A stretch of 64,000 nucleotides of DNA from the NCBI GenBank assembly GCA_963778555.1, contig CAVZUR010000005.1:97756-161755 (forward strand). Direction: 5' to 3'. The notes below the pieces were generated by a model. The model was not told the origin of the DNA and searched no databases. It saw only the letters and a list, made by a program, of their open reading frames with translations. Shown piece after piece: positions 7,844 to 56,174 of this stretch. Each line of letters starts with the position of its first letter. The stretch's first letter is position 1. This DNA is from Candidatus Moraniibacteriota bacterium. Lineage in GTDB: Bacteria; Patescibacteriota; Minisyncoccia; Moranbacterales; UBA1568. A program made the translations under genes and the position numbers.

Positions 7844-7921
7844 ACCTTTTGTTTCGAGGGAATCAACACCAATCCACAACCATAGTATACATGTTTTTCC
7901 GGCTTTTCTAAACCATGGAGG

Positions 7922-8740
7922 CTATTTGTCAAGTAGCCCGAGATTATGTCGGATGACACTTCGAGTTTCCTCGAGACCGGCCGCGTAGAGGGCTGGATCA
8001 TTTCCCGGATACGCCCGGCCCCAATCAGTTGGGCTCATGTGTTCGCTTGCGAGGAGTGCGGTCTCTAGAGCCTTTCGAGCAGCTTCTTTTTCTCCAAGAT
8101 TGAGGAGCGCGGTACCATAAATGTTGTTCAGCCAGGGATTGCCGTGAGCCTGTCTGAGGCCGGCTGCTGCTGTGTCGCGAGTCTTTTCATACTCACCTAG
8201 CTTGAAGTAAATCCACGCCAAGTCGTTGTAGCCGGCCCAATTGAAGGAATCGCGTTTGATGAATTCGCTGAATCCCCAGATTGCGCTTTCATAGTCGCCT
8301 CTATATCCACTAATGAGCCCCTGCATATAGTAGGCCCGCTTGAATTCAGGATCTATACGGAGTACGGTGTCCATCTCAATCCGCGCCGATTCGAATCTTC
8401 CACTGATGAAATGGATGCGTCCGAGCTGGAAATGCGCTTCCAAAAAATCAGGATGTAATTCAATCGCTCTTGTGTAAGCAGACTCCGCTTTCTTAATGTC
8501 ATATGCTTCTCCATCCCCGAAATAGCTATCGCCGATTTTTAGAAACAGATCTGGATTGCTACGATTAACGAAAGTGGCAACCGTTTCCAACCCAAGACCG
8601 GGCCAGAAGGAATAGAGTTGCGGGATATGGAAACATGCGTAGGTACTGGAGAAAAGGGCAATAACAGTCCCAACCAACAGCACAGTGGAGGGCCTCATTT
8701 TGAGAGTCAGAGAAGTGATGGAATCCGTGATTTTATTCAT
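7922..8740 (-). CDS. Tetratricopeptide-repeat protein with an N-terminal membrane anchor
   Basis: 272 aa. TM segment VLLVGTVIALFSSTYACF, followed by repeated TPR-like units (A..Y..AI.L.P.F.EA...LG, YY.QG...G.Y..A...F, AW.YFKLGEYEKT). Confidence 0.75.
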   Translation of the reverse strand: MNKITDSITSLTLKMRPSTVLLVGTVIALFSSTYACFHIPQLYSFWPGLGLETVATFVNRSNPDLFLKIGDSYFGDGEAYDIKKAESAYTRAIELHPDFLEAHFQLGRIHFISGRFESARIEMDTVLRIDPEFKRAYYMQGLISGYRGDYESAIWGFSEFIKRDSFNWAGYNDLAWIYFKLGEYEKTRDTAAAGLRQAHGNPWLNNIYGTALLNLGEKEAARKALETALLASEHMSPTDWGRAYPGNDPALYAAGLEETRSVIRHNLGLLDK

Positions 8741-8807
8741 GCATGATTCCAGTATAATATATCATGTTGAGATAGTATTTTTGCAGAAAAAACAGTTGTC
8801 GTTGTGT

Positions 8808-11397: not shown

Positions 11398-12141
11398 ATG
11401 CATACATTTCTCTACAATTTTTTTCATCACGAGACCAATGATCGGACGGAAAAGGGCCTGGTGAGTATTCCGGCAGACAAGGGGCGCTGGCCGGAGTCAT
11501 GGAAAACGATAACGTGCAAACGGTATTCTCTGTTTCCGGAGGTTGAGCTTCCTGAAACGAGCGGGTCTTTGTTTGAGCAGCTCTTGCGAGAACGCAGATC
11601 GAGCGAAGGGCATATCGTGGGGAATATCCTCACTCTGCCCGTACTTGCCTATATCCTGCAGTGTGGGTATGGCCTGCAGGGCGGGAGCGAAGGAGATCAG
11701 AGGAAAGCGAACCGAACCGTTCCTTCCGGCGGGGGACGATATCCGCTCGAAGTGTATGTTTTTCTCTTCAAGCCGATTGGCACTTGCGTTTCGGGAATCT
11801 ATCATTACAGTGTGAAGCATCATTCCTTGGAACCAGTTGCGCTCATGCCATTCACGCTTGAAGATATTGGTTCTTTCGCACCGGAGCAGGCGTGGCTCCA
11901 GGATACGAACGGGATGATTTGCATCACGAGTGTGTTTCAGAGAACGGTTGAAAAATACGGCAGCCGCGGGTATCGCTACATCTTGCTGGAGGCTGGGCAT
12001 GCTGCTCAGAATATGCTGCTCGCCGGAACCGAAAAGGGCGTGAACATCATCCCGATTGGCGGCGTAGAGGCTGATAAAATAGAAAAAAAACTTGGCCTGA
12101 GCGGGGAAGAAGAAGGGGTCGTGTATACGCTCTTTTTATAA
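11398..12141 (+). CDS. SagB-type (nitroreductase-fold, FMN) dehydrogenase
   Basis: 247 aa. RTVPSGGGRYPLEVYVF, GIYHYSVKHHSLEPV, QRTVEKYGSRGYRYILLEAGHAAQNMLLAG and IPIGGVEADKIEKKLGLSGEEEGVVYTLFL match the SagB/ThcOx dehydrogenase signature (R..PS.G..YP.E.Y; KYG.R.YRY.L.EAGH..QN). Confidence 0.8.
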   Translation: MHTFLYNFFHHETNDRTEKGLVSIPADKGRWPESWKTITCKRYSLFPEVELPETSGSLFEQLLRERRSSEGHIVGNILTLPVLAYILQCGYGLQGGSEGDQRKANRTVPSGGGRYPLEVYVFLFKPIGTCVSGIYHYSVKHHSLEPVALMPFTLEDIGSFAPEQAWLQDTNGMICITSVFQRTVEKYGSRGYRYILLEAGHAAQNMLLAGTEKGVNIIPIGGVEADKIEKKLGLSGEEEGVVYTLFL

Positions 12142-12152
12142 TAAACCCTAGT

Positions 12153-13668
12153 ATGCGGAGCGACTCCTCTTCAAAATTTTTCCATTGCTCGGGATACCTC
12201 TCCCTTAGGGAGTATGTGGAGGATATCGAGTCGATGAGGCAGCATGGCCCGTGGCGGCTCCCGCTCGGCATCGGCGACCGGGTGCAGATTTTCTTTTTCT
12301 CCCTGATTCTGAAATACTCCTGGTTTTCTGATGCGTTGAGCATACGGTATCCCTATACGTGGAGCCCAGCGTATTCGGTGCTCATCGCCTATCTGAAAAG
12401 GTGTGGCGTAGTCGATGTGGTCCGGGAGCAGAATGCGAATCGCAGCGGATATTCCTTCTTCTCCCTTCAAAGGGGCATTTCCATAAATGAAAATATTCGG
12501 ACCATCGGCGGTCTGGGAGTCGACCAAGAGGTCTCGACGGCGTTTTCCAAAGCGATCGGCGAAATGCTTGAGCGCATCATTTCTGGTTTGTATAATAAGG
12601 ATACCGACATACTAATCGCTTCATCGAACGAACTGCTCAAAAAGTTTCCAGTACTCTACCCGCCGAAATACCATCGCTTCTTGGACATCCAAAGAGAGCA
12701 TTACCGGGAACTCCAGCATGACCCGTCCCGTCCGATGGATTGGCTGAGTGGAATTAATCTCATTACGCAAGAACAAACGTATATCCCGCGGCATATTGTT
12801 TCGTGGTTTGGGTTTGCCGAAGCGCGCGTGTTCAAAGACATTCTCCTGCATCCGACATCCAATGGCTGTGCCGGGTACTTTACGAAGACGGGTGCTGTTT
12901 TGCGAGGGCTGATCGAAGCAGTGCAACGGGACGCTTTTCTCGTCCATTGGCTCACGCAGATCGCCCCTGATCGCATCATCGAGGACACTCTGTCGCTAGA
13001 AATTCAGAAACAAGTCGGGGAATTCAAGGCGCGTGGAATCACCCTGCATATTCTCGATGTCACAGCTCTTTCTATCCCGTCCGTATCCATTGTGGCAATC
13101 AATGCTGAATCGGAAACTCCGCAGATTATTTTGAGCGGCGCAGAGCGGCGACATTTGAGCGGGCGGTGCAGGACGCACTCCGTGAAATGGTGCTGATGTC
13201 AGCGACTATGTTCTACCAAGGAGAAGCTAATAATAGAAAGAAAGAGCCTATGTTAGCAGAGCCGCAGCCATTCGTTTCTGATCTCAATGAGAAAACCAGG
13301 CAACTCTACTGGCGCGGTCCCGAAAAGATCCAGCAATTCCAGTGGTTCCTCTCCGGCAAGCAGGTTTCCTACGCGGAACTCTGCCAAAAGGATCTCACCT
13401 CAGCGACCGATGATGCTACCCAACTGAAAGCCTGCCTCTCCGTTCTGAGAAAAAGAGGCCCTGACTACTACCCGATTGCCTATTTCCCCAAGCATCCCAT
13501 CCAAGCCAAGCTCGGGTTCTACATCGCCCAAGTCTATGTACCGAAGGCTTTCCCCTCTATCTCCTCGAGTGCCAGGGCACCTTCGACAGCGACCGTTTGG
13601 AGGAATTCGCTGCTTCCAAAGGTGTCACCGAGTGGAAGCTGAATCCGTTGCCGCATATGTTTTCTTGA
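12153..13668 (+). pseudogene. YcaO-domain protein, copy 2, interrupted by two 1-nt deletions (about 13141-13147 and 13552-13555)
   Basis: ORFs 12153-13196 and 13166-13642, plus a third frame to the stop at 13666-13668, together reconstruct a full YcaO colinear with copy 1. IILSGA|AATFERAVQDALREMVLMSATMFY requires a +1 shift. KAFP|LYLLECQGTFDSDRLEEFAASKGVTEWKLNPLPHMFS requires another, at a C4 run that is C5 in copy 1. Confidence 0.75.
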
Positions 13669-13777
13669 TGAGCGATACAGGTTGTGGAAAGAGGAGACAT
13701 CGTGTATCGTTTATAGTGTACGCGGTACCGGAGAGTCACGAGACAAATATAAATCATTTCAGGCCGTGTTAGCGAGT

Positions 13778-14470
13778 ATGTTTCAGAAAGTCAGGCGAGT
13801 TGCGAGCAGAAAACTCCTGTTTCTTGTTGGCGTATCTTTGGCCGGTATCCTTGGCATCCTGGGCAGTTATACGCGGACGAACTATTCGAAAAGCGGTTCG
13901 CTGGTTGTCCCAAAGGCGCAGGCGGATACCCCTCCCACTTGTGCTTCGTGCGGTTGCGCCTATACTGAGGACCAATGCGTTACATACTGGTCCTGTTTTC
14001 CGGCCGACACGCCTATCAGCACACCAGCCGGTAAGCGAGTCATACAGGAGCTGGCGGTCGGAGACAGCGTGCTTGGTTTCGACATTGAAACCGGCCGGAC
14101 CGGAGAATACCCGGTGACCAGAACCTTCAAACACGGCCGAAACGATGCGAATACCGTGTATTCTCCGCTGATTCAGATTACGCATGCAAAAGGATCGTTC
14201 CTCGCGACGGATAATCATTGGATCTATCGGCGCAATGGCCGGGTCGGGGAATACGCCAATTTTGACCGTGTCGGAACGCTTCAAGTCGGTGACATGCTGA
14301 CGACAGAAAGCGGCGAAGAGGTGGCGGTGACAGCGATCGAACCGGGGCCCGAGTATGATTTTGTGTACAATCTCGAGGTGGCGGAGGCCCATACGTATTT
14401 CGCTAGCGGTATCCGGGTACACAATAGCGGCAGTGGACCTGGTGGCTGTTGTGGCTCTTCAGGAAAATAA
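13778..14470 (+). CDS. Small membrane-anchored Cys/Ser/Gly-rich peptide interrupted by a complete Hint/mini-intein domain
   Basis: 230 aa from the ATG at 13778 (the ORF track starts at a TTG at 13682). Residues 1-72: basic N-terminus, TM LLFLVGVSLAGILGILG, then TPPTCASCGCAYTEDQCVTYWS. Residues 73-216: Hint domain. Residues 217-230: SGSGPGGCCGSSGK. Confidence 0.8.
   Translation: MFQKVRRVASRKLLFLVGVSLAGILGILGSYTRTNYSKSGSLVVPKAQADTPPTCASCGCAYTEDQCVTYWSCFPADTPISTPAGKRVIQELAVGDSVLGFDIETGRTGEYPVTRTFKHGRNDANTVYSPLIQITHAKGSFLATDNHWIYRRNGRVGEYANFDRVGTLQVGDMLTTESGEEVAVTAIEPGPEYDFVYNLEVAEAHTYFASGIRVHNSGSGPGGCCGSSGK
13994..14425 (+). other. Mini-intein / Hint domain (144 aa) with all canonical class-1 splicing residues
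   Basis: Cys1 (CFPADTPISTPAG), block B TxxH (LATDNHWIY), C-terminal blocks EYDFVYNLEVAEAHTYFASGIRVHN, and a +1 Ser. No homing-endonuclease insert is present. Confidence 0.8.
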
Positions 14471-26400: not shown

Positions 26401-26414
26401 GGGGGGGGGGGGGG
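26401..26414. repeat. G14 homopolymer in a divergent intergenic/promoter region
   Basis: ttc-GGGGGGGGGGGGGG-tagcc, 91 nt upstream of the ATG at 26505 and ~190 nt upstream of the minus-strand SDR start at 26210. Confidence 0.9.
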
Positions 26415-26504
26415 TAGCCTCGCATGATTTGAATCCTACTTGGTGTGGTCAACCGCCAATCATAGCCCATTTCAGTCTGATTTGGTAGGGTGAGGATAGT
26501 TAAT

Positions 26505-27869
26505 ATGGATCGTCGACTAGCCATTTTCATCGCTATCCTCGTCCTCACGAGCGCTCTCGTGGGCAGTTTTTTGTGGCATGGGGTAAAAGAGAGATCAATG
26601 GTTGTCGTGTCGAATGAAATGCCCCAGTCTGATTACCAGATAGTTTATACTGCCGAAGGCTACCAACCTGATCAGCTTGACATCCCGATCGGTTCACGCG
26701 TCGAGTTCAAAAATACCACTGAGATTCCGATGTGGACGGCTTCGGATCCACATCCAGTACACTCAGACTTCGCTTCTTTTGATGCCCAGAAGGCCTATTA
26801 TTTAGGCGAGACATTCGTTTTTCAATTCAAGGATGCTGGAACGTTCGGTTTCCACAATCATGAGAAGTCGATTCACCGTGGAATCATTCACGTGATAGAT
26901 CCCGATCACCCTTTGCAGACAATTGATAAAACGAAAGAGAGTCAGCGGTCGATGCGTGACAAGTACTTAGCCATGCTCGATCCGAATGATCCGAATTCAA
27001 TTTTTATTCTTTTAGATACCATTAAGTCCGATAGTATTCTTTCTCAGGATTATTGTCACGATATGGCACACGATCTTGGGCATCGGGCGTATGAAATGTT
27101 TGGATTTTCTGGCGCAATGACATTCAGCAACCCAGAGCATCTCCGCCATGCACCAGTAGATGATGTGTGCGGGGGTGGTTATATGCACGGGATCTTAGAG
27201 GAGATCTTTCTTCGTCGGCCAGCGTTGAAAAAGGATCCAGGCACGGTTTGTTCATCAGTACCTGATGATAGTAAACATCGCTGCTTCCATGGCGTGGGAC
27301 ACGGACTTATGTTTGTGAACAAGAGAGACTATCCCGCCTCCCTGTTGGGATGTCGACAGCTTGAACAGATCAAAAATAAAAAGCAATGTTTTGAAGGTGC
27401 TAGCATGGAACTTTTCTGGGGGAATACCGAACACACTGGAGCAGACTCACTTGGTTGGACGAAAGAGTCGATACTCCTTCCCTGTATGAACGCGAAAATG
27501 GACGAGAAGCCGTTTTGCTTTCTCTATGCGCATCTCGGATATCTGCGGACAAATCCGAAAGATTTCAATGGAGTGGTAAAGCTCTGTACACAAAACGGAC
27601 TCGAAAATAGAGATATAGACTTCTGTCTTAAGGGGGTTGGTGTCACAATGATTAAGCATTTTACTGAGCAGCATTTAGAGCAAACCGAGAAACTCGTTGA
27701 AGAACTAGACGCTGAAAAAAAATACTCCTACTATAGTGGCGTGATTGCTCATGCGAATCTCATGAAAGTGAGTGGGGTCAGGCTGAGTACTTTTTGCGAT
27801 GCCCTCAGGCACGATGCAGTGCTTTGTAGAAATGCTCTACGCGATGCCCCGAGTGTTCAAGATAATTAA
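26505..27869 (+). CDS. Membrane-anchored protein with a tentative cupredoxin-like N-terminal domain and a Cys/His-rich C-terminal domain
   Basis: TM AIFIAILVLTSALVGSFLW. IPIGSRVEFKNTTEIPMWTASDPHPVHS...GETFVFQFKDAGTFGFHNHEKSIHRGIIHVI resembles cupredoxin-fold domains but lacks a Cys ligand. The remainder is unassigned. Confidence 0.55.
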   Translation: MDRRLAIFIAILVLTSALVGSFLWHGVKERSMVVVSNEMPQSDYQIVYTAEGYQPDQLDIPIGSRVEFKNTTEIPMWTASDPHPVHSDFASFDAQKAYYLGETFVFQFKDAGTFGFHNHEKSIHRGIIHVIDPDHPLQTIDKTKESQRSMRDKYLAMLDPNDPNSIFILLDTIKSDSILSQDYCHDMAHDLGHRAYEMFGFSGAMTFSNPEHLRHAPVDDVCGGGYMHGILEEIFLRRPALKKDPGTVCSSVPDDSKHRCFHGVGHGLMFVNKRDYPASLLGCRQLEQIKNKKQCFEGASMELFWGNTEHTGADSLGWTKESILLPCMNAKMDEKPFCFLYAHLGYLRTNPKDFNGVVKLCTQNGLENRDIDFCLKGVGVTMIKHFTEQHLEQTEKLVEELDAEKKYSYYSGVIAHANLMKVSGVRLSTFCDALRHDAVLCRNALRDAPSVQDN

Positions 27870-30309: not shown

Positions 30310-30343
30310 AGTGGCATTACCGAATAACATAATTTATTGCGCT

Positions 30344-32911
30344 ATGGAGTCGTCCGAAAAGCCATCGTTTGCACGTTTTGGGAGTCAGGCTAATTTTGCA
30401 TCGAGTGACCGGGTGAATGGGGGAGTGGTCCGAACCGAGACGCCGCTTCGAACCGGTACCGGGACAGCCGCACCGTCCCGCGTGCAGACCGCCAAGGTAT
30501 TTGATCTCATCATCACCAGCGTGCTCGTCGTGCTCTTCGCAGGTATCCCAGTCTTTTTTACGGGACTCACATTTCAAGGTATTGCATTTGAAAAACAGAT
30601 CTTCTTCTACTGCTGTCTTCTGATCGGGTTCGTCGCGTGGGTCTCGAAGGGGGTCATGACGGGTGAGATGCGTATCCGCCGGACGCCACTGGATATCCCC
30701 ATCGTTCTCTTTTGGCTGTTCTCGATCGCAGCGACGGTTTTCTCAGTTGACCGATGGCACAGTTTCTGGGGATTCTTCGGCGACCCATCGCGCGGTTTCA
30801 TCAGTCTGACGGCTTTGGTCCTGGCCTACTTCTTCATCATGAGCCATTTCACCGAACGGCGGAGGAATCTCATGCTCGGATCATTCCTCGTGTCGGGAGT
30901 ACTTGTTATCCTGTGGAGTTTCTTGGTAGTGATGAAACTTCGCTTTCTCCCCGCGAGCTGGGAATCGATGGCACCCTTGTCCTTGGTCGGTTCGATGTCG
31001 ACGCTGAGCCTCTTCTTGGCCCTCCTCATCCCGCTCATGGTGACTGCCTTGTTCCTCTTGTTTCGTGAAGGATCAGGGGCCTCATTGATGTTGCGTCGGA
31101 GCGGGGCAGCTGTCCTCGGTGTCGCTTTGCTGCTCGATTTATTCTTGCTCCTCGCGCTCTATCCGTTCGTGTCGTGGCCGGTCGTTCTGGGTGGATTGGG
31201 ATTTTTCCTCATCTACATCCTCGCGCAGATTGTCCGTCCAGCCAGCGAATTGACCTGGATGCCGATGGTGATTTTCGTCGTCGTCCTCGCCTTTCTCATG
31301 ATCGGCCAAAACCAGCTCGTCCGGGCGACGCTGCCAATCGAGGTGACCCCGAACATGAAATTGTCCTGGCAGATTGCCAAGGAAGCACTGAGCGCCAATT
31401 TCCTCTCTGGCACTGGCTTGGGGACATACGGCTATGATTTCTCACTCTTCCGTCCGCAGGAGTTCAATGGCAATGCGCTTTACACGCTGCGCTTCTATCA
31501 GGGGACGGGTCTCGTCTTTGAAGCGCTGTCGACCGTTGGCATTGTCGGAACTATTCTGATGCTCGTTATCTGGTTCTCCTTCTTGTCGGTCGGACTCTAT
31601 CTCCTCACCATGGATAAGGCCAAGAACAAAGTCGCTTCGCTCGGCTTGTGGTCGGTCGCGGTTATGCTGTTCATCTCCGGCTTCGTGTCGCCCATCAATT
31701 CCACGATTCTCATTCTGAGCGTCCTGCTCTCGGCACTTGCACTCGCGACCCTCTTGCAGGAAAGCGGATCCGAAGAGCGGCATTGGGAACTTTCGTTCCG
31801 GGCGACACCAAAGTTCGCACTGGCCCTAGCGTTCGTATTCATGGTGGTCTCCGCAGGCGTGGCATTCCTCTTCGTCTTCATGGGTAAGGTGTTTCTGGCC
31901 GATATTTCGGCGGGCCGGGCGTCAAGGCTTCCGGCATCAGTCGAGGAGACCGTTCCCAAGTACTTGAAAGCCATTCAGCTCTATCCGCAGGAGGGTCGGT
32001 ATTTCACCCGTGTTGCCCAAGAATACATGGCGATCGCCAATGCCGAGGGTGGCAAGAGCGCTGAAGAAAGAGATGTGAACAAGATCGCCTTCGCGGTCCG
32101 TGAAGGCGTGGCCGCTGGTGTCCGCGCCCGTGACCTGATGCCGAACGATGTGCTCGCGACGGAGGCCCTCGGATTGGTCTATGAGAACGCGAGTATTTAC
32201 GCGACAGACGCGTTGCCCAAGGCGGAAGAGATGTATGCGCGTGCCCTGGAACTCGAGCCGCAGAATCCGCTGTTCTCCATCAAGCTCGGTCAGATCAGCC
32301 GGCTCAACGCGGATGGGAAGCAGGATCCAACTGAGAAGGCAGCACTCTTTGCAGCGGCCAAAGCCTCTTTCGAGAAGGCCATTGAGCAGAAAGCTGATCT
32401 CGCGGTCGCGCATTACAATCTCGCAGTCGTCAATTCCCGATTGAAGGACTATGACGCGGCCATCCGCTCCACCTCTCAAGCGATCCGTCTCGCGCCGTCG
32501 AACCTCTCCTTCCGCTATAATCTCGGGCTGCTCTATCAGGAGCGCAATGGCGAGGGTGATCGCAACCAAGCCGAAGCACTGTTCAAGAACGTGCTTGAAG
32601 CTAATGACCGGCTCATCGATGTTCGGCTCTCGCTCGGTCTTCTGTACGAGTCCGAAAGCAAGCGCGACCTGGCGATGGAGCAGTACGAAAAGATCCTCGT
32701 TCTCATCCCAGAGGATGAAAAAGTTTCGGCCAATGTGAAGCAGACCAGGACTCAGATTACACAGATCATCGAGAATCTTCGCTCTGGCAAAGGTAATATC
32801 CCGGCGGGGAGCAGCCTCGCTGAACCGGGTCCGACCACGCCAACGACCGTCGCACCGTCCGTTCCGACGACGAGTCAAAGCGAGTCACTCCTGAATGGGC
32901 CGACGCGGTAG
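30344..32911 (+). CDS. Polytopic membrane protein (O-antigen-ligase/Wzy-like) fused to C-terminal TPR repeats
   Basis: About 855 aa. More than 10 hydrophobic helices span roughly the first 530 aa. The C-terminus carries TPR-like units (AEEMYARALELEPQNPLF, AVAHYNLAVVNSRLKDYDAAI, RYNLGLLYQERNG) and a Pro/Thr-rich tail. The Wzy-like call rests on architecture only. Confidence 0.6.
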   Translation: MESSEKPSFARFGSQANFASSDRVNGGVVRTETPLRTGTGTAAPSRVQTAKVFDLIITSVLVVLFAGIPVFFTGLTFQGIAFEKQIFFYCCLLIGFVAWVSKGVMTGEMRIRRTPLDIPIVLFWLFSIAATVFSVDRWHSFWGFFGDPSRGFISLTALVLAYFFIMSHFTERRRNLMLGSFLVSGVLVILWSFLVVMKLRFLPASWESMAPLSLVGSMSTLSLFLALLIPLMVTALFLLFREGSGASLMLRRSGAAVLGVALLLDLFLLLALYPFVSWPVVLGGLGFFLIYILAQIVRPASELTWMPMVIFVVVLAFLMIGQNQLVRATLPIEVTPNMKLSWQIAKEALSANFLSGTGLGTYGYDFSLFRPQEFNGNALYTLRFYQGTGLVFEALSTVGIVGTILMLVIWFSFLSVGLYLLTMDKAKNKVASLGLWSVAVMLFISGFVSPINSTILILSVLLSALALATLLQESGSEERHWELSFRATPKFALALAFVFMVVSAGVAFLFVFMGKVFLADISAGRASRLPASVEETVPKYLKAIQLYPQEGRYFTRVAQEYMAIANAEGGKSAEERDVNKIAFAVREGVAAGVRARDLMPNDVLATEALGLVYENASIYATDALPKAEEMYARALELEPQNPLFSIKLGQISRLNADGKQDPTEKAALFAAAKASFEKAIEQKADLAVAHYNLAVVNSRLKDYDAAIRSTSQAIRLAPSNLSFRYNLGLLYQERNGEGDRNQAEALFKNVLEANDRLIDVRLSLGLLYESESKRDLAMEQYEKILVLIPEDEKVSANVKQTRTQITQIIENLRSGKGNIPAGSSLAEPGPTTPTTVAPSVPTTSQSESLLNGPTR

Positions 32912-33007: not shown

Positions 33008-33352
33008 ATGCGCAATATGCATCGCTTCGGTTCAGCCGTTCTGAAACGTCTTACCTTTGTCTTTGTTGTGGTGGTGATGCTCGTACCATTCGCAGCCTTC
33101 GCGGGTGTGATAGATGAAGCACAGCCGCTCACTGTCGGTCTGACGAATATCCTTGACTTTTTATTGTCGATTGTGGGCGTGGTTGGTATAATTGGGCTAG
33201 TGATTGCGGGTATCCTGTATTTCTCCGCTGCCGGCGACATGCGACAACTCGCTCTCGCCAAAAAAGCAACGCTCGGATCAATCACTGGCATTATCATCGC
33301 ACTCGGCGGATATGCCCTCATTCGGACCATTGGCGTGCTCTTCGCTACTTGA
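33008..33352 (+). CDS. TrbC/VirB2-like (T4SS-pilin-like) small membrane protein, paralog P1
   Basis: 114 aa. Signal/TM1 region, then the two-helix hairpin LLSIVGVVGIIGLVIAGILYFSAAGDMRQLALAKKATLGSITGIIIALGGYALI. The (Y/F)(L/F)(T/S)AAGD-x5-9-(A/G)K motif is shared by all seven paralogs. Confidence 0.75.
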   Translation: MRNMHRFGSAVLKRLTFVFVVVVMLVPFAAFAGVIDEAQPLTVGLTNILDFLLSIVGVVGIIGLVIAGILYFSAAGDMRQLALAKKATLGSITGIIIALGGYALIRTIGVLFAT

Positions 33353-33416
33353 AACACACATAAACATTCGCCTCAGCTACTGAATGTGGCTGAGCACTGA
33401 AAGGAGGTGAGAGGTT

Positions 33417-33788
33417 ATGCAAAAATTCAAAAAAGTTGCCTTCGGTGCTCTGAACGGGCTGCTCTTGCTCGCGCCGGCTGTGGCTCATGGTCAGTCTTGG
33501 GATGCTTCTATCGGCGCCGCACAGGCCAATTCGGGTCTGCCGACGGGATCGATATCGGGTATCATCATAGCGACCCTGACCTGGCTCCTGGGAATTCTCG
33601 GCTTTCTCGCGATGATTGGGTTTATCATCTCGGGTATTCTCTATCTCACCGCCGCTGGCAATGAGACGCAGATCGAAAAGGCCAAGAACGCTATGACATA
33701 CTCCATCATTGGTGTCATCGTAGCGCTCATGGGCTTTGTGATCATTCAAGCGGTTGATCTGTGGTTGGGGACGTCAACGACTTTCTAG
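33417..33788 (+). CDS. TrbC/VirB2-like small membrane protein, paralog P2
   Basis: 123 aa. Strong SD (aaaggaggtgagaggttATG), signal peptide ...LLLAPAVAHGQ, and WLLGILGFLAMIGFIISGILYLTAAGNETQIEKAKNAMTYSIIGVIVALMGFVII. Confidence 0.8.
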   Translation: MQKFKKVAFGALNGLLLLAPAVAHGQSWDASIGAAQANSGLPTGSISGIIIATLTWLLGILGFLAMIGFIISGILYLTAAGNETQIEKAKNAMTYSIIGVIVALMGFVIIQAVDLWLGTSTTF

Positions 33789-33815
33789 TTCGTCCTTTCC
33801 GATCGAAAAGGGAAC

Positions 33816-33845
33816 ACGACTCGCATCAGCGGGTCGTTTTCTTCG
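33816..33845 (+). terminator. Rho-independent terminator after P2
   Basis: 9-bp stem acgactcgc/gcgggtcgt with loop atca, followed by tttcttc. Confidence 0.65.
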
Positions 33846-34056
33846 GACAGAAACTGATTAGTCTCATGTCTTGAGTGTCTCAGACTGGGTAATGAAAAAG
33901 AATGTTGACAGTTGTGTTCAGATGTTTTAGACAGGCTTTTTAAGAAGGGATATACTAGAAGCATGTAAAAGTGCGTTGATTGTCTGGTAACGAAATATCT
34001 ATTCACATTCGCCTCAGTCACGTCGGTGACTGAGCACTGAAAGGAGGTGAGAGGTT

Positions 34057-34428
34057 ATGCAAAAATTCAAAAAAGTTGCCTTCGGTGCTCTGAACGGGCT
34101 GCTCTTGCTCGCGCCGGCTGTGGCTCATGGCCAAGCGTGGGACGCTTCTATCGGCGCCGCGCAGGCCAACTCGGGTCTTCCGACGGGATCGATATCGGGT
34201 ATCATTATATCGACCCTAACGTGGCTCCTGGGAATTCTCGGCTTTCTCGCGATGATTGCATTCATCATCGCGGGTATTCTCTATCTCACCGCGGCTGGTG
34301 ACGAGTCCCAGATCGAAAAGGCCAAGACGGCCATGACATACTCCATCATTGGTGTCATCGTGGCGCTCATGGGCTTTATCATCATTCAAGCGGTTGATCT
34401 GTGGTTGGGGACGTCAACGACTTTCTAG
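34057..34428 (+). CDS. TrbC/VirB2-like small membrane protein, paralog P3
   Basis: 123 aa, about 93% identical to P2, with the same SD and leader. Confidence 0.8.
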   Translation: MQKFKKVAFGALNGLLLLAPAVAHGQAWDASIGAAQANSGLPTGSISGIIISTLTWLLGILGFLAMIAFIIAGILYLTAAGDESQIEKAKTAMTYSIIGVIVALMGFIIIQAVDLWLGTSTTF

Positions 34429-34456
34429 TTCGTCCTTTCCGATTCGATTAGGGAAC

Positions 34457-34486
34457 ACGACTCGCATCAGCGGGTCGTTTTCTTTT
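34457..34486 (+). terminator. Rho-independent terminator after P3
   Basis: Same 9-bp stem-loop as after P2, followed by tttcttttg. Confidence 0.65.
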
Positions 34487-34587
34487 GGGATGGGGCCAGT
34501 TTGCCCTTCGAGCACGAACGAGATTGACGGTGAAAAAAACCATTGACAGGATCGCTAACATGCTTTGGACAGGCGCAGTAGGAGGGG

Positions 34588-34625
34588 GTATACCACTACA
34601 CCAATATATTGGTGTAGTGGTATAC
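34588..34625. promoter_or_regulatory. Perfect 38-nt palindrome (gtataccactacaccaata|tattggtgtagtggtatac) upstream of P4
   Basis: The two 19-nt arms are exact reverse complements with no spacer. The element overlaps a possible -10 (tatacc/tatact) and ends 47 nt before the P4 start at 34673. Confidence 0.7.
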
Positions 34626-34672
34626 TGAAACCATACAAAACTGGGTAAATTGTCTAACTCGCTGCGTGGAGT

Positions 34673-35053
34673 ATGTTTATAGAGAAAAATACAGGAACCG
34701 TGTTTATGACAGCCACGTTCGTGGCGCTAGTTGTGTTCGCTGCTTTCGGATTGACCTCGGAAGTCTGGGCTCAGTGGAATATGGCCGACCCGAACCTTGC
34801 CGACTCGGGCCTTTCGGATTCGACGGCCTATGACATCCTCGTGACGCTCATGAATTGGCTTCTCGCCATATTGGGCTTCATCGCCATTATCGCCTTTGTG
34901 ATCTCCGGCATGCAGTACTTGACGGCGGCGGGAGACGAGGGGTTGGCGGAGCGGGCCAAGAGCAATTTGAAATACTCCATCATCGGCATCATCGTCGCGC
35001 TCTCGGGCTATATTATCATCGTGACGATCAGTGACGTGTTCCTGTCGGCCTAA
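34673..35053 (+). CDS. TrbC/VirB2-like small membrane protein, paralog P4
   Basis: 126 aa. WLLAILGFIAIIAFVISGMQYLTAAGDEGLAERAKSNLKYSIIGIIVALSGYIII. Confidence 0.75.
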   Translation: MFIEKNTGTVFMTATFVALVVFAAFGLTSEVWAQWNMADPNLADSGLSDSTAYDILVTLMNWLLAILGFIAIIAFVISGMQYLTAAGDEGLAERAKSNLKYSIIGIIVALSGYIIIVTISDVFLSA

Positions 35054-35111
35054 ACCTAACAGTGGGAGGCCAGTATCAAAGGCAGGATCAGTTATGAGCG
35101 GCCGGAACAGT

Positions 35112-35528
35112 ATGCACACAAAAACGAACACCCCCCAGCGAATACAGGTTTTTCCGAAGATTTTTTATTTCGGGGTTTTTCTTTTGTTTGGGGTATTGTT
35201 TCTCGGACCAACAGAGCTCTTTGCACAAACGTGTCCGGCTGGATTTAGTGCGGAGAATGGCACGTGTTGGCCTACCAATACAGGTCTCTCAGAGGCGTCG
35301 CTCTATGATATTATCGTGGCGGTCATGAACTGGATTCTCGCGATTGTCGGTTTCATCGCTATCATTGCCTTCACCATCTCAGGTGTCCAATATATGACCG
35401 CGGCCGGGGATGATTCGCAGATTGAAACCGCCAAGCGCAACATGAAGTATTCCGTCGTCGGTGTTATCGTCGCGCTTTCGGGCTATATCGTCATCGCGAC
35501 AATCGATAATTTGTTCCTGTCAGCCTAA
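35112..35528 (+). CDS. TrbC/VirB2-like small membrane protein, paralog P5, with a short Cys pair after the signal peptide
   Basis: 138 aa. Start chosen by homology of MHTKTNTPQRIQVFPKIFYFGVFLLFGVLFL to the P6 N-terminus. AQTCPAGFSAENGTCWPT, then WILAIVGFIAIIAFTISGVQYMTAAGDDSQIETAKRNMKYSVVGVIVALSGYIVI. Confidence 0.7.
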   Translation: MHTKTNTPQRIQVFPKIFYFGVFLLFGVLFLGPTELFAQTCPAGFSAENGTCWPTNTGLSEASLYDIIVAVMNWILAIVGFIAIIAFTISGVQYMTAAGDDSQIETAKRNMKYSVVGVIVALSGYIVIATIDNLFLSA

Positions 35529-35590
35529 GTGGCTCAGGTGTCAGTGCACCCAGAGAAAGTCTCAAAAAAACAGCCAGTCACTCGGATAGC

Positions 35591-36400
35591 ATGAACACAA
35601 AAAGAAACCGGCGACCCCATACTGAAATCTTCCCAAAAATGATTGTTTTTGGTGTTGTTCTGTTGTTCGGAGCATTGTTTCTCACGCCTTCTCCGGCGTC
35701 GGCCCAGAGCTGCGTCGGGACCTGTGTGCCGAACTCTATCGGCTGCCAGGGTACGCTGATTCCGGGTCCCGGTACTTGCCCAGATCCGGCGAATGAAGAA
35801 TGTTGTTGGGGCGGTGCGATCCCTGATCCAGTACCGACTGGGGGTGGTCCAGCAGCTTCAGCTGGTGGCGGACCGGTCTCTATGACGTCTACAGACGTCT
35901 CCAATCCGCTCAGCTTCACCACAGTGGATACGCTTTTGACGAACGTTCTCGGTTTCGTCCAGAGCTTCATGGTCATCCTCTCCCTCATCTTCATCGTCAT
36001 CGGCGCAATCATGTATATCACCTCGGGTGGGGACTCGGGCCGTATCGAGACGGCCAAGAAGGCCATCGCCGCGGCTCTCATCGGCCTGGCCATCGGTATT
36101 GCGGCCCCGGCCTTCCTGAAAGAGATCGCCCAGATCCTCGGCTGGACCGATGTCCCGAGCAATGTGAGCGGTGCCAAGTCCCTCCTCGAAATCGCCGGCG
36201 GCGTTCTGAACTTCCTCCTCTCTGTCGTCGGCATCATCGCCCTCATCATGCTCGTCGTCGGTGCCCTCATGTATCTGACCGCGGCCGGGGATGAAGATCG
36301 GATCGATACCGGCAAGAAGATCGTGAAGTACTCCATTATCGGCATTACGATTGCTTTGGCCGCCATGGTCTTGGTGCGGCAAGTCGCGGGGTTTTTCTAA
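35591..36400 (+). CDS. Pilin-like protein P6: one Cys-rich module plus two tandem TrbC/VirB2-like hairpin domains
   Basis: 269 aa. Signal peptide, SCVGTCVPNSIGCQGTLIPGPGTCPDPANEECCWGG, Gly/Pro linker, then hairpin 1 (ILSLIFIVIGAIMYITSGGDSGRIETAKKAIAAALIGLAIGIAAP) and hairpin 2 (LLSVVGIIALIMLVVGALMYLTAAGDEDRIDTGKKIVKYSIIGITIALAAMVL). Confidence 0.75.
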   Translation: MNTKRNRRPHTEIFPKMIVFGVVLLFGALFLTPSPASAQSCVGTCVPNSIGCQGTLIPGPGTCPDPANEECCWGGAIPDPVPTGGGPAASAGGGPVSMTSTDVSNPLSFTTVDTLLTNVLGFVQSFMVILSLIFIVIGAIMYITSGGDSGRIETAKKAIAAALIGLAIGIAAPAFLKEIAQILGWTDVPSNVSGAKSLLEIAGGVLNFLLSVVGIIALIMLVVGALMYLTAAGDEDRIDTGKKIVKYSIIGITIALAAMVLVRQVAGFF

Positions 36401-36414
36401 ACTGATACGAGGCT

Positions 36415-38241
36415 ATGCCATTTCGAAATCTTTTGGTCATCATCTTCCTCTCCGCTGTCTTCGGACTGTTCATTCCGGGCTTGACCCAGGCGCAGACCTG
36501 CCAGGAAAATGGCGGTGCCTGCCGTCCGGGCTGGGTATCGGGTTGCGCTAACCCAGAGACGCCTGTGTCTGGAACTTGTCCGGCTGCCCCTTCAAATGCT
36601 CCTCCGGGTGGTGTGCTCATCTGTTGCCGCGCGAGCCAGTCAGGAGTGATGAATGCACGGATAGCGGAGGAGTCTGTCGAAGCGCTTACTATTCGACGGA
36701 GTTTCCGAACGCTGAATGGCCCGCTCAACCTGCCTGTGGATATAGCACTGCAGAAGTCACATCATCGGCACGCTGCAGCAACTTTTTTGCGCTCTGTTGC
36801 GTCCCGCCGCCGAATCTCGGCGCCAGCTGCAATGGTGGATCCGGCACTTGTCTGTCGGCTGGGAGCTGTGCGAGTCCGGTCGCGTCGGCTGACTGCGTTG
36901 GGGGGGCTGTGTGCTGTCCACCGCTCTCGCCGAATGTTGGAACTTCGTGCGGTGGTACCGCCACGTGCCAGTTGACCTGTAGCGGCACACCGTCATCCTC
37001 GCCAACATGCGTCGGTGGAACCATGTGTTGTACACCGACTCCGCCCCCTCCTCCCCCCCGCCGCCGCCGGTGGACAATGTTGGAACTGCCTGTGGTGGGA
37101 CGGCCACCTGCCAATTTGCTTCGAGTTGCGCTGGGACGCAAGCTCCCTCCGCCATTTGCACGGGATCGACCGTGTGCTGCACGCCGACTCCCCACCGCCA
37201 GGCGCGAATGTCGGGACCGCCGTGCGTGGGGGATACTGACCGGCGGTGCGGGTGTCTGCGAATTTACGTCGCTCTGCAGCAATACGGAAACCTCGGGGAC
37301 CTGCACAGGGGGGACGGAATGCTGTATCTTTTCTGCTCCGCCTCCGCCGCCGCCTGTCTCGACCTGCGCTTCAGTCGGTGGTACCTGCGCGCGGGCCGTC
37401 GATGGCTGTCCGGATGGCGAGGTGCCTGGCGGCACGTGCAGCGCCAATCAGCTCTGCTGTGCAGCGGCTTCCTGTGCTGCCATCGGCGGTACGTGTACCC
37501 GGATCGATGCGGGTTGTAGTGCTGGTGAGCGGACGGGGATCTGCAGCGCGGGCCAGATGTGCTGCGCGCCGACGAGTACGGCTGTCTGTGAACCGCTCGG
37601 TACCTGTGTGCCTGCCGGGGGCTGCCTCACTGGGGAAGTGCCAGGCGGCATCCTGTGCCGATCCCGGCCGGATGTGTTGCGCTGTGTCCGCACCGGCTGG
37701 TGGTGGGCCGCTCAATGTTCCCGGGAGCGCGCTCAATCTCCCCAATCCACTCCTCTTCAATGACTTCAATGGGCTTTTCATCGCAGCTTTGAGTTCGCTC
37801 CAGAATCTCCTCGTCATCCTCTCCCTCATCTTCATCGTCATCGGCGCAATCATGTATATCACCTCGGGTGGGGACTCGGGCCGTATCGAGACGGCCAAGA
37901 AGGCCATCGCCGCAGCTTTGATCGGCCTGGCCATCGGTATCGCGGCTCCGGCCTTCCTGAAAGAGATCGCTCAGATCCTCGGCTGGAGCGATGTCCCGAG
38001 CAATGTGAGCGGTGCCAAGTCCCTCCTCGAGATCGCCGGCGGCGTTCTGAACTTCCTCCTCTCTGTCGTCGGCATCATCGCCCTCATCATGCTCGTCGTC
38101 GGTGCCCTCATGTATCTGACCGCGGCCGGGGATGAAGATCGGATCGATACCGGCAAGAAGATCGTGAAGTACTCTATTATCGGCATTACGATTGCTTTGG
38201 CCGCCATGGTCTTGGTGCGGCAGGTTGCGGGGTTTTTCTAG
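36415..38241 (+). pseudogene. Pilin-like protein P7: signal peptide, about nine Cys-rich modules with poly-Pro linkers, then two hairpin domains; broken by at least 5-6 frame changes
   Basis: A conceptual protein can be followed through ORFs 36415-36975 (f1), 36576-37763 (f3), 37007-37519 (f2), 37015-37239 (f1), back to f3, then 37246-38241 (f1). Frame switches fall near 36630-36645, the C7 run at 37053-37059, ~37190, ~37222, ~37236 and ~37645. Modules follow C-x3-4-G-x-C...C...C-x2-6-CC. Confidence 0.6.
37813..38241 (+). repeat. 429-nt direct repeat of 35972-36400 (the double-hairpin 3' ends of P6 and P7)
   Basis: Constant offset of 1841 nt. Only scattered substitutions were seen by eye, e.g. 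ggaccgatg vs ggagcgatg and caagtcgcg vs caggttgcg. Confidence 0.85.
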
Positions 38242-38271: not shown

Positions 38272-38569
38272 CCACCACACCAATCATTCTTCACCGTGTA
38301 TGTTTTATGTTTATGTGTTGAAGAGTCAGAAAGATGGTAAAGGATACATCGGTTCCACGAATGATCTCAAAAGAAGACTTTCCGAACATCAAGGAGGACA
38401 AGTGACTTCGACAAAGTCTCGCCGTCCTTTCAAACTAGTCTATTACGAGGCTTATTCAGCCGAGACTGATGCCAGGAAACGGGAGGAAAATCTCAAGTTA
38501 AAGAGTCGCGCCTATGCCCAACTACTGAAAAGGATTTCAGAAAGTCTCAAAGTATGATTGGTGTGGTGG
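38272..38569 (+). mobile_element. 298-bp cassette: GIY-YIG ORF bracketed by perfect 16-bp inverted repeats
   Basis: ccaccacaccaatcat at 38272-38287 and its exact reverse complement atgattggtgtggtgg at 38554-38569. The right repeat contains the ORF stop codon. Confidence 0.55.
38300..38557 (+). CDS. Stand-alone GIY-YIG nuclease-domain protein
   Basis: 85 aa. FYVYVLKSQKDGKGYIGSTNDLKRRLSEHQ...KLVYYEAYSAETDARKREENLK matches the GIY-x10-YIG, Arg and Glu catalytic-core pattern. Confidence 0.8.
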   Translation: MFYVYVLKSQKDGKGYIGSTNDLKRRLSEHQGGQVTSTKSRRPFKLVYYEAYSAETDARKREENLKLKSRAYAQLLKRISESLKV

Positions 38570-38640: not shown

Positions 38641-40107
38641 CTAAGTGCACTGCTCGATCATGACCTGGAGACTGCCGGGTCCTTGGCGGTGGAGATCCGG
38701 CGCCGCGTAGATGTTTCGGCCCAGGGTGATGGTCAACGGCTGCGACGTCTCGATGCGGCCCTGTTCGCCGATGAAGAGGGGCTTGTATCCCCACTCCTTG
38801 GCGAGGACGAAGAAGCGTCCATAGGGCTGCGTCTCCCGGGCGATTACCTCGCTCGGGAGCGGGGCTCCCGGTACTGGTTGCGGTCTCCAGTATCCGCCGC
38901 CATAGCCGGTAAAGGCTTGCCCTTTGTTGTAGCAGGTATTGATCCTGCCCAGGGCATCCATGTCGCAGGAGTAGTCCAGTGACATGTCGGTTTTTTTCAG
39001 GAAGTGCTGCTGCACTGTCCCACTCACCTGGAATTTGTATTTCCCAGGCGGCAATGGCGCATCGAGTGTCAACCGGCCATTGGTCGACTCACTTGGCACA
39101 TAGTCCACTTCCAGATAGGGGGAGCAGACCGAGGCCATGGCGACGGGTGTCGCCGGAGCCGGTGCAGTTGCCTGCCCCATGCTCGTTGACGCCGTACTCG
39201 GTGCCGTCGTGACCGTGGTCGCGTCAGCACCGATCTTGGCGCATTCTTCGAACTCGGCCGCGGTCGGGATGACCGGGGCGATCTTCTTGGCTGGGTCGCC
39301 CTTAGCTTTTGCCTCGAGCTTCGCGTAGCAAGCATTGCGCTCGCCTTGCTTGGCGGTTTCGGCTGCCATTTCGGCTTGGACTCGGGCGGCTGCGGTGGCC
39401 GCTTCGGCACGCCGCTTGGCATCCGTCGACCGATCATCGATCGACTTCAGGCCCAGCTTGTGCTGAGTCCAGGCGACCAGATCCTTCTGATATTCGCGAA
39501 TACCAGGAGTCCAGCTGCCCAGGGTCCAGACGATCACAGCGATCAGGATAGTCGCCGAAAAGTTCAGGACGAACTTGCCGCTCCGATTGGTGTACATGCA
39601 CCAGACGGTGAGGAACACCGATGCCGCGAGCATGACGATGGCACCGACGGGATTGCTCCCGATGGGCCAGAGCGCCAGGACGAAGAAGGGGAGTGAACCA
39701 TAGAGCGCCACCATTGCGGCGAATCGGCCGAGCGCGTAGATCCACGTTTCTGCCCACTTCTTGCCGTCCGTTACGCTCAGTCCAACTTCGCCCCCCGGTT
39801 GCGCAGCGACGAAAGCCACACCCGCTGGTCCGAAGATGTTCAGCGGCGTCAGAATGAACGCCACGGCGGTGAGCAGGAACGCCATTGCGGCGATCCAGTT
39901 GAGGTGGCGGAGAGAGTCGGGGAACCAGACGTTCACCACGGCGCCCACGATGAGGGCGGCGAAGTACGCGAGGACGAAGAGTCGGGTGACCCTGAACCAG
40001 CCACGGTGGAAAGAGAACCACCGACCAGTCCAGTCCGCATTCACGAGAGGACCGAAGTACTCCAAGGGTGAAACATTGGGAACAGGGGGAACAGGTTGCG
40101 TTGCCAT
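38641..40107 (-). CDS. Polytopic membrane protein of unknown function with a charged Ala/Lys/Glu linker and a C-terminal soluble domain
   Basis: 488 aa. AAGGAG sits 8 nt upstream and overlaps the stop of the upstream gene. About 6 TM helices in the first 230 aa, then AKRRAEAATAAARVQAEMAAETAKQ, then a beta-rich domain. No family recognised. Confidence 0.7.
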   Translation of the reverse strand: MATQPVPPVPNVSPLEYFGPLVNADWTGRWFSFHRGWFRVTRLFVLAYFAALIVGAVVNVWFPDSLRHLNWIAAMAFLLTAVAFILTPLNIFGPAGVAFVAAQPGGEVGLSVTDGKKWAETWIYALGRFAAMVALYGSLPFFVLALWPIGSNPVGAIVMLAASVFLTVWCMYTNRSGKFVLNFSATILIAVIVWTLGSWTPGIREYQKDLVAWTQHKLGLKSIDDRSTDAKRRAEAATAAARVQAEMAAETAKQGERNACYAKLEAKAKGDPAKKIAPVIPTAAEFEECAKIGADATTVTTAPSTASTSMGQATAPAPATPVAMASVCSPYLEVDYVPSESTNGRLTLDAPLPPGKYKFQVSGTVQQHFLKKTDMSLDYSCDMDALGRINTCYNKGQAFTGYGGGYWRPQPVPGAPLPSEVIARETQPYGRFFVLAKEWGYKPLFIGEQGRIETSQPLTITLGRNIYAAPDLHRQGPGSLQVMIEQCT

Positions 40108-40120
40108 TTCTGACTACTCC

Positions 40121-41155
40121 TTAGTTGAACTTGGCGGCGACACCGAGGATGATGACGCCGACCACGATTGTGATGACGAAAATCCTCGTTAACCGCTTGT
40201 CTTTCTCTTCGGCGGTCATCCGGCCGGCTTCGCGCGCCTCATGACGTTTGATGGCCGGGTCTTGATGCTGCTTCACGAGTGCGAGGAGAAAGGCTTGGAA
40301 CGCATTGCGGCGTCCTTGCTTTTCTGTCTCAGGTGCGGCGTCGATCGCTGCCAGGAGCTCTTGAGCCGGACGGCCCGCGAGTATTCTGGCGACGTTTTCC
40401 TTACCGATGGCGACTTCCGCCAGTCCGATATGGATTCCCGTTTCGTGATCGTTGCACCACCCTACCACCTTGGTCCCGAATGCACTGGCCTTGTCCGCGG
40501 CCGCTTTAGCAGCCACCGCAGCCTTGTCCTCGAGGTTGTCGAGGATATGGAGGCTTTGCAGGGTCTCGGCGACGGCCTTGATCCGCTTCGCTTCCGCGCC
40601 CTTGCCGCTCGTGACGAGCCAGGTGAGGGCGCTGATGACTTGTGCGCCCTTCTGATTCAGCTTTTCGTCCCACTCCGAGACGATCGGCGTTTCGCGCGTC
40701 CTCTGGCCAGTCGGATCTTTGGGATCCTTGTGCTGGGTGAAGCCGGTCGTCTTTTTGCGCTTGATCGTCGTCACTTCGACGGCGACTGTTTGCATGAGGC
40801 GTTTGATGGCCCCAGGCGGCAGCGCAGCGACGACTTTGGGAAAGATGTGCGCTTCAGTAGCTGCGACCTTGTACTCGAGAGCACAAGTGCCATCGGCCAT
40901 ATAGAGTGTCGAGAGCCACGCGAGAAGCGCGTAGAGCTCGCCTTCCTGTTCCCGGTTCTCACTGATGACCTGGGGGCCGGGCGGAGAAGACGGAATCTTT
41001 GCCGATTCGGCTTTTACGTTTTTGCTTCCAGCAATCCATCGGTAGAGCTTCATGGCGTACTCGGCCATATCGCCCCCAGAGAGGAGGCCGCTCTCCATAA
41101 TCGCTTTGACATACTTCGTGGGCATGATTGAGTCCCTTTCTGATCTTTCGATCAA
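40121..41155 (-). CDS. Tail-anchored protein of unknown function
   Basis: 344 aa (alternative start MPTKY at 41125). Largely helical, with a C-terminal TM IFVITIVVGVIILGVAA. Apparently co-transcribed with 38641-40107. Confidence 0.65.
   Translation of the reverse strand: MIERSERDSIMPTKYVKAIMESGLLSGGDMAEYAMKLYRWIAGSKNVKAESAKIPSSPPGPQVISENREQEGELYALLAWLSTLYMADGTCALEYKVAATEAHIFPKVVAALPPGAIKRLMQTVAVEVTTIKRKKTTGFTQHKDPKDPTGQRTRETPIVSEWDEKLNQKGAQVISALTWLVTSGKGAEAKRIKAVAETLQSLHILDNLEDKAAVAAKAAADKASAFGTKVVGWCNDHETGIHIGLAEVAIGKENVARILAGRPAQELLAAIDAAPETEKQGRRNAFQAFLLALVKQHQDPAIKRHEAREAGRMTAEEKDKRLTRIFVITIVVGVIILGVAAKFN

Positions 41156-54931: not shown

Positions 54932-56174
<1,243 letters not shown>

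Follow-up and report, generated by a model that had tools for sequence, protein, structure and literature searches.

Tandem arrays of genes for VirB2-like pilins are a described feature of the Patescibacteria. In the saccharibacterium S. epibionticum, a series of essential predicted pilin genes is located inside the gene cluster for its type IV secretion system (T4SS) (Wang et al., 2023, Cell, PMC10633639). A later search of 3035 Patescibacteria assemblies with the profiles PF04956 and PF18895 revealed VirB4 in 2417 of them, VirB2-like pilins together with VirB4 in 1948, and 441 arrays of 2–11 pilin genes in 383 assemblies (Quinonero-Coronel et al., 2025, Microb Genom, PMC12102498). A pilin gene was near virB4 in only 1135 of the 1948 assemblies, adaptation to different host strains was suggested for the arrays, and a review from 2025 restates these findings. 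Here we analyzed a stretch of 64,000 nucleotides (the window) from contig CAVZUR010000005.1 of a Candidatus Moranbacteria genome, in which positions 33008–38241 of the plus strand are occupied by seven consecutive pilin-type coding regions, P1 to P7. Six of them are intact (P1–P6) and P7 is disrupted, and the seven same-strand genes proposed in an earlier interpretation of this DNA made without database searches (the sequence-only reading) are therefore seven consecutive regions, the last of which is not a single open reading frame (ORF). The region represents an array of pilin genes on the chromosome of a member of Candidatus Moranbacteria (Patescibacteria), and its products belong to family PF18895. 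As arrays of this type were published between 2023 and 2025, the core finding, a VirB2-like pilin array away from virB4 in Patescibacteria, is of an already known kind. The explanation that we prefer, with a probability of about 0.7, is that the array provides a conserved set of pilins with a division of labour, which would be served by a T4SS encoded elsewhere in the genome.

Evidence for family membership comes from profile searches. All seven regions are above the gathering cut-off of the Pfam family PF18895 (T4SS_pilin, 26.6 bits), with 27.1 bits for P1, 37.9 for P2, 38.1 for P3, 43.0 for P4, 44.4 for P5, 56.9 for P6 and 57.7 for the 3' ORF of P7. The TrbC/VirB2 family PF04956 (cut-off 27.9 bits) is passed by P1 alone, with 32.6 bits over profile positions 10–98 of 98, and P2–P7 stay below. 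The sequence-only reading had assigned the genes to VirB2/TrbC-type pilins of PF18895 in a genome of the candidate phyla radiation (CPR) and had suggested these two profiles as a check, and the assignment is confirmed by PF18895 for the whole array and by PF04956 for P1. The homologs of P6 are encoded in metagenome-assembled genomes (MAGs) of Candidatus Moranbacteria (Moraniibacteriota), and the host belongs to the CPR, class Paceibacteria. The NCBIfam model NF045849 (Mbov_0395 family) matched P2, P4, P5 and P6 with E-values of 1e-7 to 1e-10 (2.4e-9 for P2), at scores under the family cut-off save for P5, which reaches it exactly with 40.0 bits. The alignment also bore out the shared architecture that had been noticed before: in each paralog, a signal peptide precedes two hydrophobic helices that form a hairpin and are joined by a short polar loop, and all hairpins carry the loop motif Y(L/M/F/I)(T/S)(A/S)(A/G)G(D/N)..(Q/R/L)(I/L/A)..(A/G)K with the consensus Y-L-T-A-A-G-D-x-x-I-x-x-A-K. 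Apart from the pair P2/P3 and the 3' ends of P6 and P7, the paralogs are divergent, with 32–38% identity to P1.

A comparison with the published Patescibacteria VirB2 arrays (PMC10633639, PMC12102498) shows the same families PF18895/PF04956, the same phylum and the same tandem organization of 2–11 genes. The survey counted as an array 2–11 pilin genes that stand in tandem or have one non-pilin gene between them (PMC12102498), and the seven genes of our locus are adjacent. Common to both are also a monoderm host, a T4SS resembling the MPF-FATA (mating-pair formation, FATA) type that mostly lacks a relaxase, and pilin genes that are often located away from virB4. In contrast to the high divergence within published arrays (mean 25%, maximum 54% identity), P2 and P3 are about 93% identical, and the published arrays peak in Microgenomatia and Saccharimonadia, whereas this one belongs to Moranbacteria (class Paceibacteria). 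Further differences are the fixed site linked to nusA and the terminal tandem double pilins with cysteine-rich modules. The literature that we searched contains no description of tandem double pilins or chains of six-cysteine modules, and none of a fixed array order, a nusA site across Moranbacteria or a concerted evolution of P2/P3. The Gram-negative pilins VirB2, TrbC and TraA (PF04956) share the signal peptide, the two hydrophobic helices and the short charged loop, but the host is monoderm in our case and the partners VirB5, VirB7, VirB9 and VirB10 are not expected. These classical pilins are not known to have fused double domains or N-terminal modules. The Mbov_0395 family (NF045849) of integrative and conjugative elements in Mycoplasma is likewise a small two-helix protein associated with a monoderm MPF-FATA-type T4SS, but it is a single gene on a mobile element and not part of a chromosomal array.

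To place the array among its relatives, one genome per species was scanned, which resulted in 80 loci with a relative of P6, nearly all from Moranbacteria; ORFs were called in these loci and searched with a hidden Markov model of the window's hairpin. As a rule, the arrays comprise five genes (in 24 cases), six (in 8) or seven (in 11), and these 43 arrays all end in a double pilin; the general grammar is a succession of several single-domain pilins closed by a terminal double pilin. One to six six-cysteine modules are present in 46 of the 97 double pilins. In five close relatives (L003, L010, L012, L013 and L019), the array has seven genes, which correspond one-to-one to P1–P7 as orthologs and are arranged as in the window; they are designated g1 to g7 in the following. 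The P7 ortholog is intact in four of them (L003, L010, L012 and L019), with a length of 634–691 aa, five or six modules and two other beta-rich domains, and the P7 ortholog of L013 has 404 aa and one module. In 35 loci, which represent at least 35 species, the array is located upstream of nusA-ppa-tig-clpP. Many third-party-annotation MAG records with a Moranbacteria-type locus (L005, L008, L010, L012–L015, L017 and others) are titled "uncultured Bdellovibrionales", which looks like a taxonomy label error.

The first five genes encode single-domain pilins, and the ORFs and the alignment agree with the earlier description of P1–P4 as proteins of 114–126 aa with one domain and of P5 as a pilin with an additional cysteine pair. 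P1 (33008–33352, plus strand as the whole array) has 114 aa with a signal peptide and the helical hairpin, and shares 56–74% aa identity with g1 of the five relatives. P2 (33417–33788, 123 aa) is a candidate for the major pilin; no Shine-Dalgarno sequence in the array is better than that of its gene, AAAGGAGGTGA, and a separate terminator-like hairpin follows the gene at 33816–33837. P3 (34057–34428, 123 aa) is a near-identical copy of P2, with 92.5% nucleotide identity and differences at 8 of 123 residues. It is followed by a terminator-like hairpin at 34457–34478, and both the ribosome-binding site and the hairpin lie inside the unit that is copied between P2 and P3. P4 (34673–35053, 126 aa) is about 50% identical to its ortholog g4, and P5, which starts with the ATG at 35112 and ends at 35528, corresponds to g5 and carries the cysteine pair (C-x10-C) after the signal peptide. 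Between P3 and P4, a perfect palindrome of 38 nt, GGTATACCACTACACCAATATATTGGTGTAGTGGTATACC, is located at 34588–34625; a distance of 48 nt separates it from the start of P4, and a TTGACA precedes it at 34544. It may be an operator or a hairpin and perhaps divides the array into two transcription units.

Two parts of the array are almost duplicated. The P2 unit (33364–33843) and the P3 unit (34005–34484) are 92% identical over 481 nt including their flanks, and the 3' ends of P6 (35954–36399) and P7 (37794–38240) are 96% identical over 447 nt, so that one residue differs over the last ~140 of the two double-pilin parts. A new duplication was rejected as the origin of P2/P3, as the pair is found in all five close relatives. 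Within each of these genomes, g2 and g3 show 88–100% nucleotide identity (100% in three), whereas the g2/g3 proteins of different genomes share only ~70% aa identity; this pattern indicates that P2/P3 are an old duplicate probably homogenized by gene conversion. For P6/P7, the 96% identity in the window compared with 72–82% between the 3' ends of g6 and g7 in the relatives, together with P6-type residues at the 3' end of P7, fits a recent conversion from P6 to P7 in this lineage. The repeats reported by the sequence-only reading are real, but gene conversion of old paralogs explains them better than the recent duplications it had proposed.

Gene conversion within the array, the divergence of the remaining paralogs and the differences in number and type of the cysteine modules between relatives could also point to a repertoire for variation, comparable to the VirB2 paralogs of Anaplasma and Bartonella, from which the cell would draw one interchangeable subunit or a few at any given moment, in order to suit different hosts or to evade recognition. 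This is close to the published interpretation of Patescibacteria arrays as an adaptation to different host strains (PMC12102498). Nevertheless, one ortholog per paralog in the same order in five relatives and a grammar that is kept across the order fit fixed and distinct roles, and the conversion of P2/P3 makes these two copies alike rather than diverse. Therefore, we consider such a repertoire to be unlikely.

The array ends with two double pilins. P6 (35591–36400, 269 aa) consists of a signal peptide, a six-cysteine module (residues 41–72), a Gly/Pro linker and two VirB2-like hairpins in tandem, and the match to PF18895 extends over two stretches. An AlphaFold2 model based on 40 homologs (mean predicted local distance difference test score, pLDDT, of 77) has four long helices at residues 110–144/149–183 and 198–230/235–268, corresponding to two hairpins, and a confident three-stranded module at residues 41–75 (pLDDT ~90). 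This agrees with the former description of P6 as a pilin with one six-cysteine module and a second hairpin domain. We found 537 homologs of P6, and the best 120 of them are double pilins throughout according to the motif count. P7 (36415–38241) is a disrupted giant double-pilin gene. Its reconstruction yields 605 aa with nine six-cysteine modules and two hairpins, and three-frame translation locates the nine modules scattered over all three frames. The frame changes near 36640, 37059 (a C7 run), 37193, 37222, 37232 (a G5 run) and 37650, at minimum four, are also seen by tblastn with the intact orthologs. The earlier count of about nine modules is thus readable in the DNA, but it needs four to six frame corrections and does not correspond to one ORF.

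Random sequencing errors as sole cause of these frameshifts were rejected, as the six changes fall within 1.2 kb and only one further frameshift was noticed in the window. The other genes syntenic with L003 are all intact. P7 is thus either a recent pseudogene or was affected by a local assembly or consensus error in a GC-rich repetitive stretch. The further frameshift is located in a gene for a family 1 glycosidase (GH1; 55068–56174, minus strand), where a single-base frameshift near 55208 lies just before the catalytic PIYITENG motif and the C-terminal 88 aa run on in another frame to ~54934. Either this gene has become a pseudogene very recently or the indel arose in the assembly, which may therefore contain some indel errors. 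Public gene calls cover the double pilins incompletely: the call for P6 begins at an internal methionine and gives a 172-aa fragment, and that for P7 (P0002) consists of the 189-aa 3' fragment only. The intact 691-aa P7 ortholog of L003 (10637–12712) has been called as a 189-aa gene on the minus strand and a 175-aa fragment.

The six-cysteine modules have the consensus x-x-C-x3-G-x-C-x5-C-x2-G-x6-T-C-x5-C-C and resemble beta-defensins (PF13841/PF00711) in several respects, namely the six cysteines ending in CC, the G-x-C before the second cysteine, a spacing close to C-x6-C-x4-C-x9-C-x6-CC and the three beta strands in the model of P6. The beta-defensin domain itself is a sheet of three strands held together by the disulfides C1-C5, C2-C4 and C3-C6. 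One homolog (P0108) passes the Pfam model Defensin_beta_2 (PF13841) with 26.4 bits at a cut-off of 22.2 bits, and 5 of the 40 double-pilin homologs match both beta-defensin models at E<=0.01. The modules of the window itself are below the Pfam thresholds, with no match of the reconstructed P7 module region at E<=10 or of P6 at E<=0.1, and the likeness may be a convergence within a short cysteine frame. A model of the module alone was poor (pLDDT 61) and had no Foldseek match, and a homology search with the reconstructed P7 cysteine region alone returned nothing at E<=0.001. Among 1.84 billion representatives, a profile built from the module matched only 12 proteins at E<=0.001. Two of these are double pilins, including the intact P7-like protein P0127 with 723 aa, and the others are multi-module secreted proteins without pilin domains, some of them eukaryotic-looking. 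We regard a defensin-like fold as a lead that comes from cysteine spacing and a predicted structure. It is plausible that the modules are displayed at the N-terminus, as had been suggested before. In the intact g7 orthologs (L003, L010, L012 and L019), residues ~130–330 comprise two copies of a beta-rich four-cysteine domain of ~90 aa (FTVPxGCxIPxGAsxCtIxVSWSi...) between the six-cysteine modules. As this domain is absent from P7 of the window, the N-terminal extension of P7 appears to be a shuffled mosaic.

The relation of the array to a secretion machinery can be judged from the related loci. A direct Pfam scan of cluster representatives revealed VirB4 in 15 of the 80 loci, ~1.4 kb downstream of a single pilin and a double pilin. 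L053, the only such locus annotated in detail, encodes VirB4 at 7539–9440, with matches to PF19044 (1e-28), AAA_10 and CagE_TrbE_VirB. A gene for PrgI/VirB3 separates the pilins of L053 from VirB4, ksgA is close by, and the double pilin of this locus is 50–56% identical to P6/P7. Furthermore, VirB4 is listed in 9 of 10 genomes holding this pilin family in the published Table S1, including all four with nusA-linked arrays. For GCA_000990585.1 (L026), Table S3 of PMC12102498 lists VirB4-TrsD-VirB3 at genes 334–336 and also a type IV coupling protein (T4CP), and contains no VirB2 row, yet a six-gene pilin array is located beside nusA in this genome. In the simplest interpretation, the nusA-linked array would provide the subunits for a T4SS whose genes lie elsewhere.

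The sequence-only reading had favoured the opposite view, namely a surface filament that the paralogs would form or decorate alone or together with neighbouring membrane proteins and without a T4SS. It rightly stated that the window lacks this machinery, and the position beside nusA and away from virB4 in at least 35 species is in line with it. As candidate partners it had named two genes on the minus strand between the array and nusA (38641–41155), which encode proteins of 488 aa and 344 aa and are found at the same place in close relatives (in 10 loci for the former and 6 for the latter). However, these genes are convergent with the array and fast-evolving, with 24–57% identity, and neither protein had a match in Pfam, NCBIfam or the PDB. 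The 488-aa protein was also rejected as a VirB6-like partner, as it has no family match and no similarity to the genes of the T4SS locus in L053. Further doubt about independence from a T4SS comes from 15 related genomes in which this double-pilin family lies beside virB4 (separated by PrgI in L053) and from the listing of VirB4 for all four published genomes with nusA-linked arrays, and a separation of pilin and virB4 is common in the phylum anyway (PMC12102498). Taken together, we think it quite improbable that the array works without a T4SS.

Based on these data, we propose the following model for the array. The signal peptide would export each product, probably with cleavage at a conserved A|Q site, and the helical hairpin would reside in the membrane with its conserved charged loop facing the cytoplasm. 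A Patescibacteria-type T4SS with VirB4, TrsD, PrgI/VirB3 and VirB6, encoded elsewhere in the genome, would then extract the subunits from the membrane and polymerize them into a surface filament for contact with the host cell. P2/P3 are the probable major subunit, because conversion keeps this duplicate nearly identical, its ribosome-binding site is the best of the array and each copy has a terminator of its own, and P1, P4 and P5 probably serve as minor subunits. P6 and P7 would be covalent pilin dimers, whose disulfide-rich N-terminal six-cysteine modules may be exposed on the surface or the tip of the filament for binding.

Several observations weigh against this model. No gene for VirB4, VirD4, VirB3, VirB6, VirB8 or VirB11 is present in the 64-kb window according to Pfam scans of 45 ORFs, which are nearly all plausible ORFs of >=150 aa, and NCBIfam scans of 10, and the window had no BLAST match to the VirB4, PrgI or neighbouring genes of a relative, so that the presence of a T4SS in this organism is deduced from its relatives. 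The genome GW2011_GWC2_37_8 has the pilin family and is listed without VirB4; its assembly is incomplete. The proposed roles of the individual paralogs derive from features of their genes. A search of PDB sequences with a profile of the pilin alignment returned a chance match only and no solved VirB2 or TraA pilin, fold searches do not separate these hairpins from other helical hairpins, and no filament of PF18895 pilins has been reported for any Patescibacterium in the literature covered.

The generic nature of the hairpin, together with weak matches to the other two-transmembrane families DUF6112, DUF1634 and Saf_2TM, leaves room for a different explanation, in which the products are small membrane-bound proteins, for example of a channel or an envelope scaffold, that are never extracted, and the term pilin would be no more than a label transferred from Gram-negative VirB2. 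In its favour, a monoderm envelope has been described for Patescibacteria, Gram-positive T4SSs are generally without pili, and no pilus of this type has been imaged. On the other hand, the TrbC/VirB2 profile is above threshold for P1 and is matched by 7 of 40 double-pilin homologs at E<=0.01, and the conserved hairpin loop would correspond to the lipid-contacting part in solved VirB2 and TraA pili. In addition, large extracellular N-terminal modules are best explained on an exposed structure, and we assume that purely membrane-resident proteins are very unlikely. Thus, we retain the conserved pilin set served by a distant T4SS as the preferred explanation.

Some neighbouring genes and other parts of the window deserve mention. 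Upstream of the array, a gene on the plus strand (30311–32911) encodes a polytopic membrane protein of 866 aa with C-terminal TPR repeats, which adjoins the array in the 11 closest relatives with 65–82% identity. Pfam and NCBIfam recognize the TPR repeats alone, so that its former description as O-antigen-ligase-like finds no support. Directly after P7, a gene for a GIY-YIG nuclease of 85 aa is located at 38300–38557. Similar genes are present elsewhere in the relatives (6 loci) and not at this site, which suggests a mobile or often relocated small gene. Two genes with YcaO domains (8808–10277, minus strand, and 12153–13196, plus strand) flank a gene of the nitroreductase family (11398–12141), and the group looks like a cluster for thiazole/oxazole-type modification of ribosomally synthesized and post-translationally modified peptides; it is followed by a pretoxin-HINT protein (13682–14470). 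A 1382-aa protein (1481–5629) contains a Peptidase_S74 (endosialidase chaperone) domain at residues 1038–1098, which is typical of phage tail spikes or fibres and of some surface fibres. Finally, a run of 14 G at 26401–26414, ~75 nt upstream of an unannotated ORF of 459 aa (26490–27869), could be a phase-variable tract or a weak point of the assembly.

The basic picture of pilin arrays published for Patescibacteria is unchanged by this locus. The T4SS of these organisms is essential in the one species tested, is mostly without a relaxase and differs from the usual monoderm systems in having pilins. A conserved, ordered set with distinct members across one large order favours a structure built from several subunits over simple antigenic variation. 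The family is under-counted, because gene callers split or truncate P6, P7 and the ortholog in L003, and the pilins of L026 are missed in Table S3. For the part in contact with the host, the double pilins with their cysteine-rich modules offer concrete candidates. A more far-reaching version, which we put forward tentatively and consider rather unlikely, is a heteropolymeric T4SS pilus in a single-membrane cell, made of five to seven fixed specialized subunits, in which the double pilins act as built-in dimers carrying chains of beta-defensin-like modules (up to six in intact orthologs and nine in the reconstructed P7) that bind or breach the host envelope. If true, a conjugative-type pilus would be armed here in a novel manner, and the defensin-like fold would have a bacterial home.

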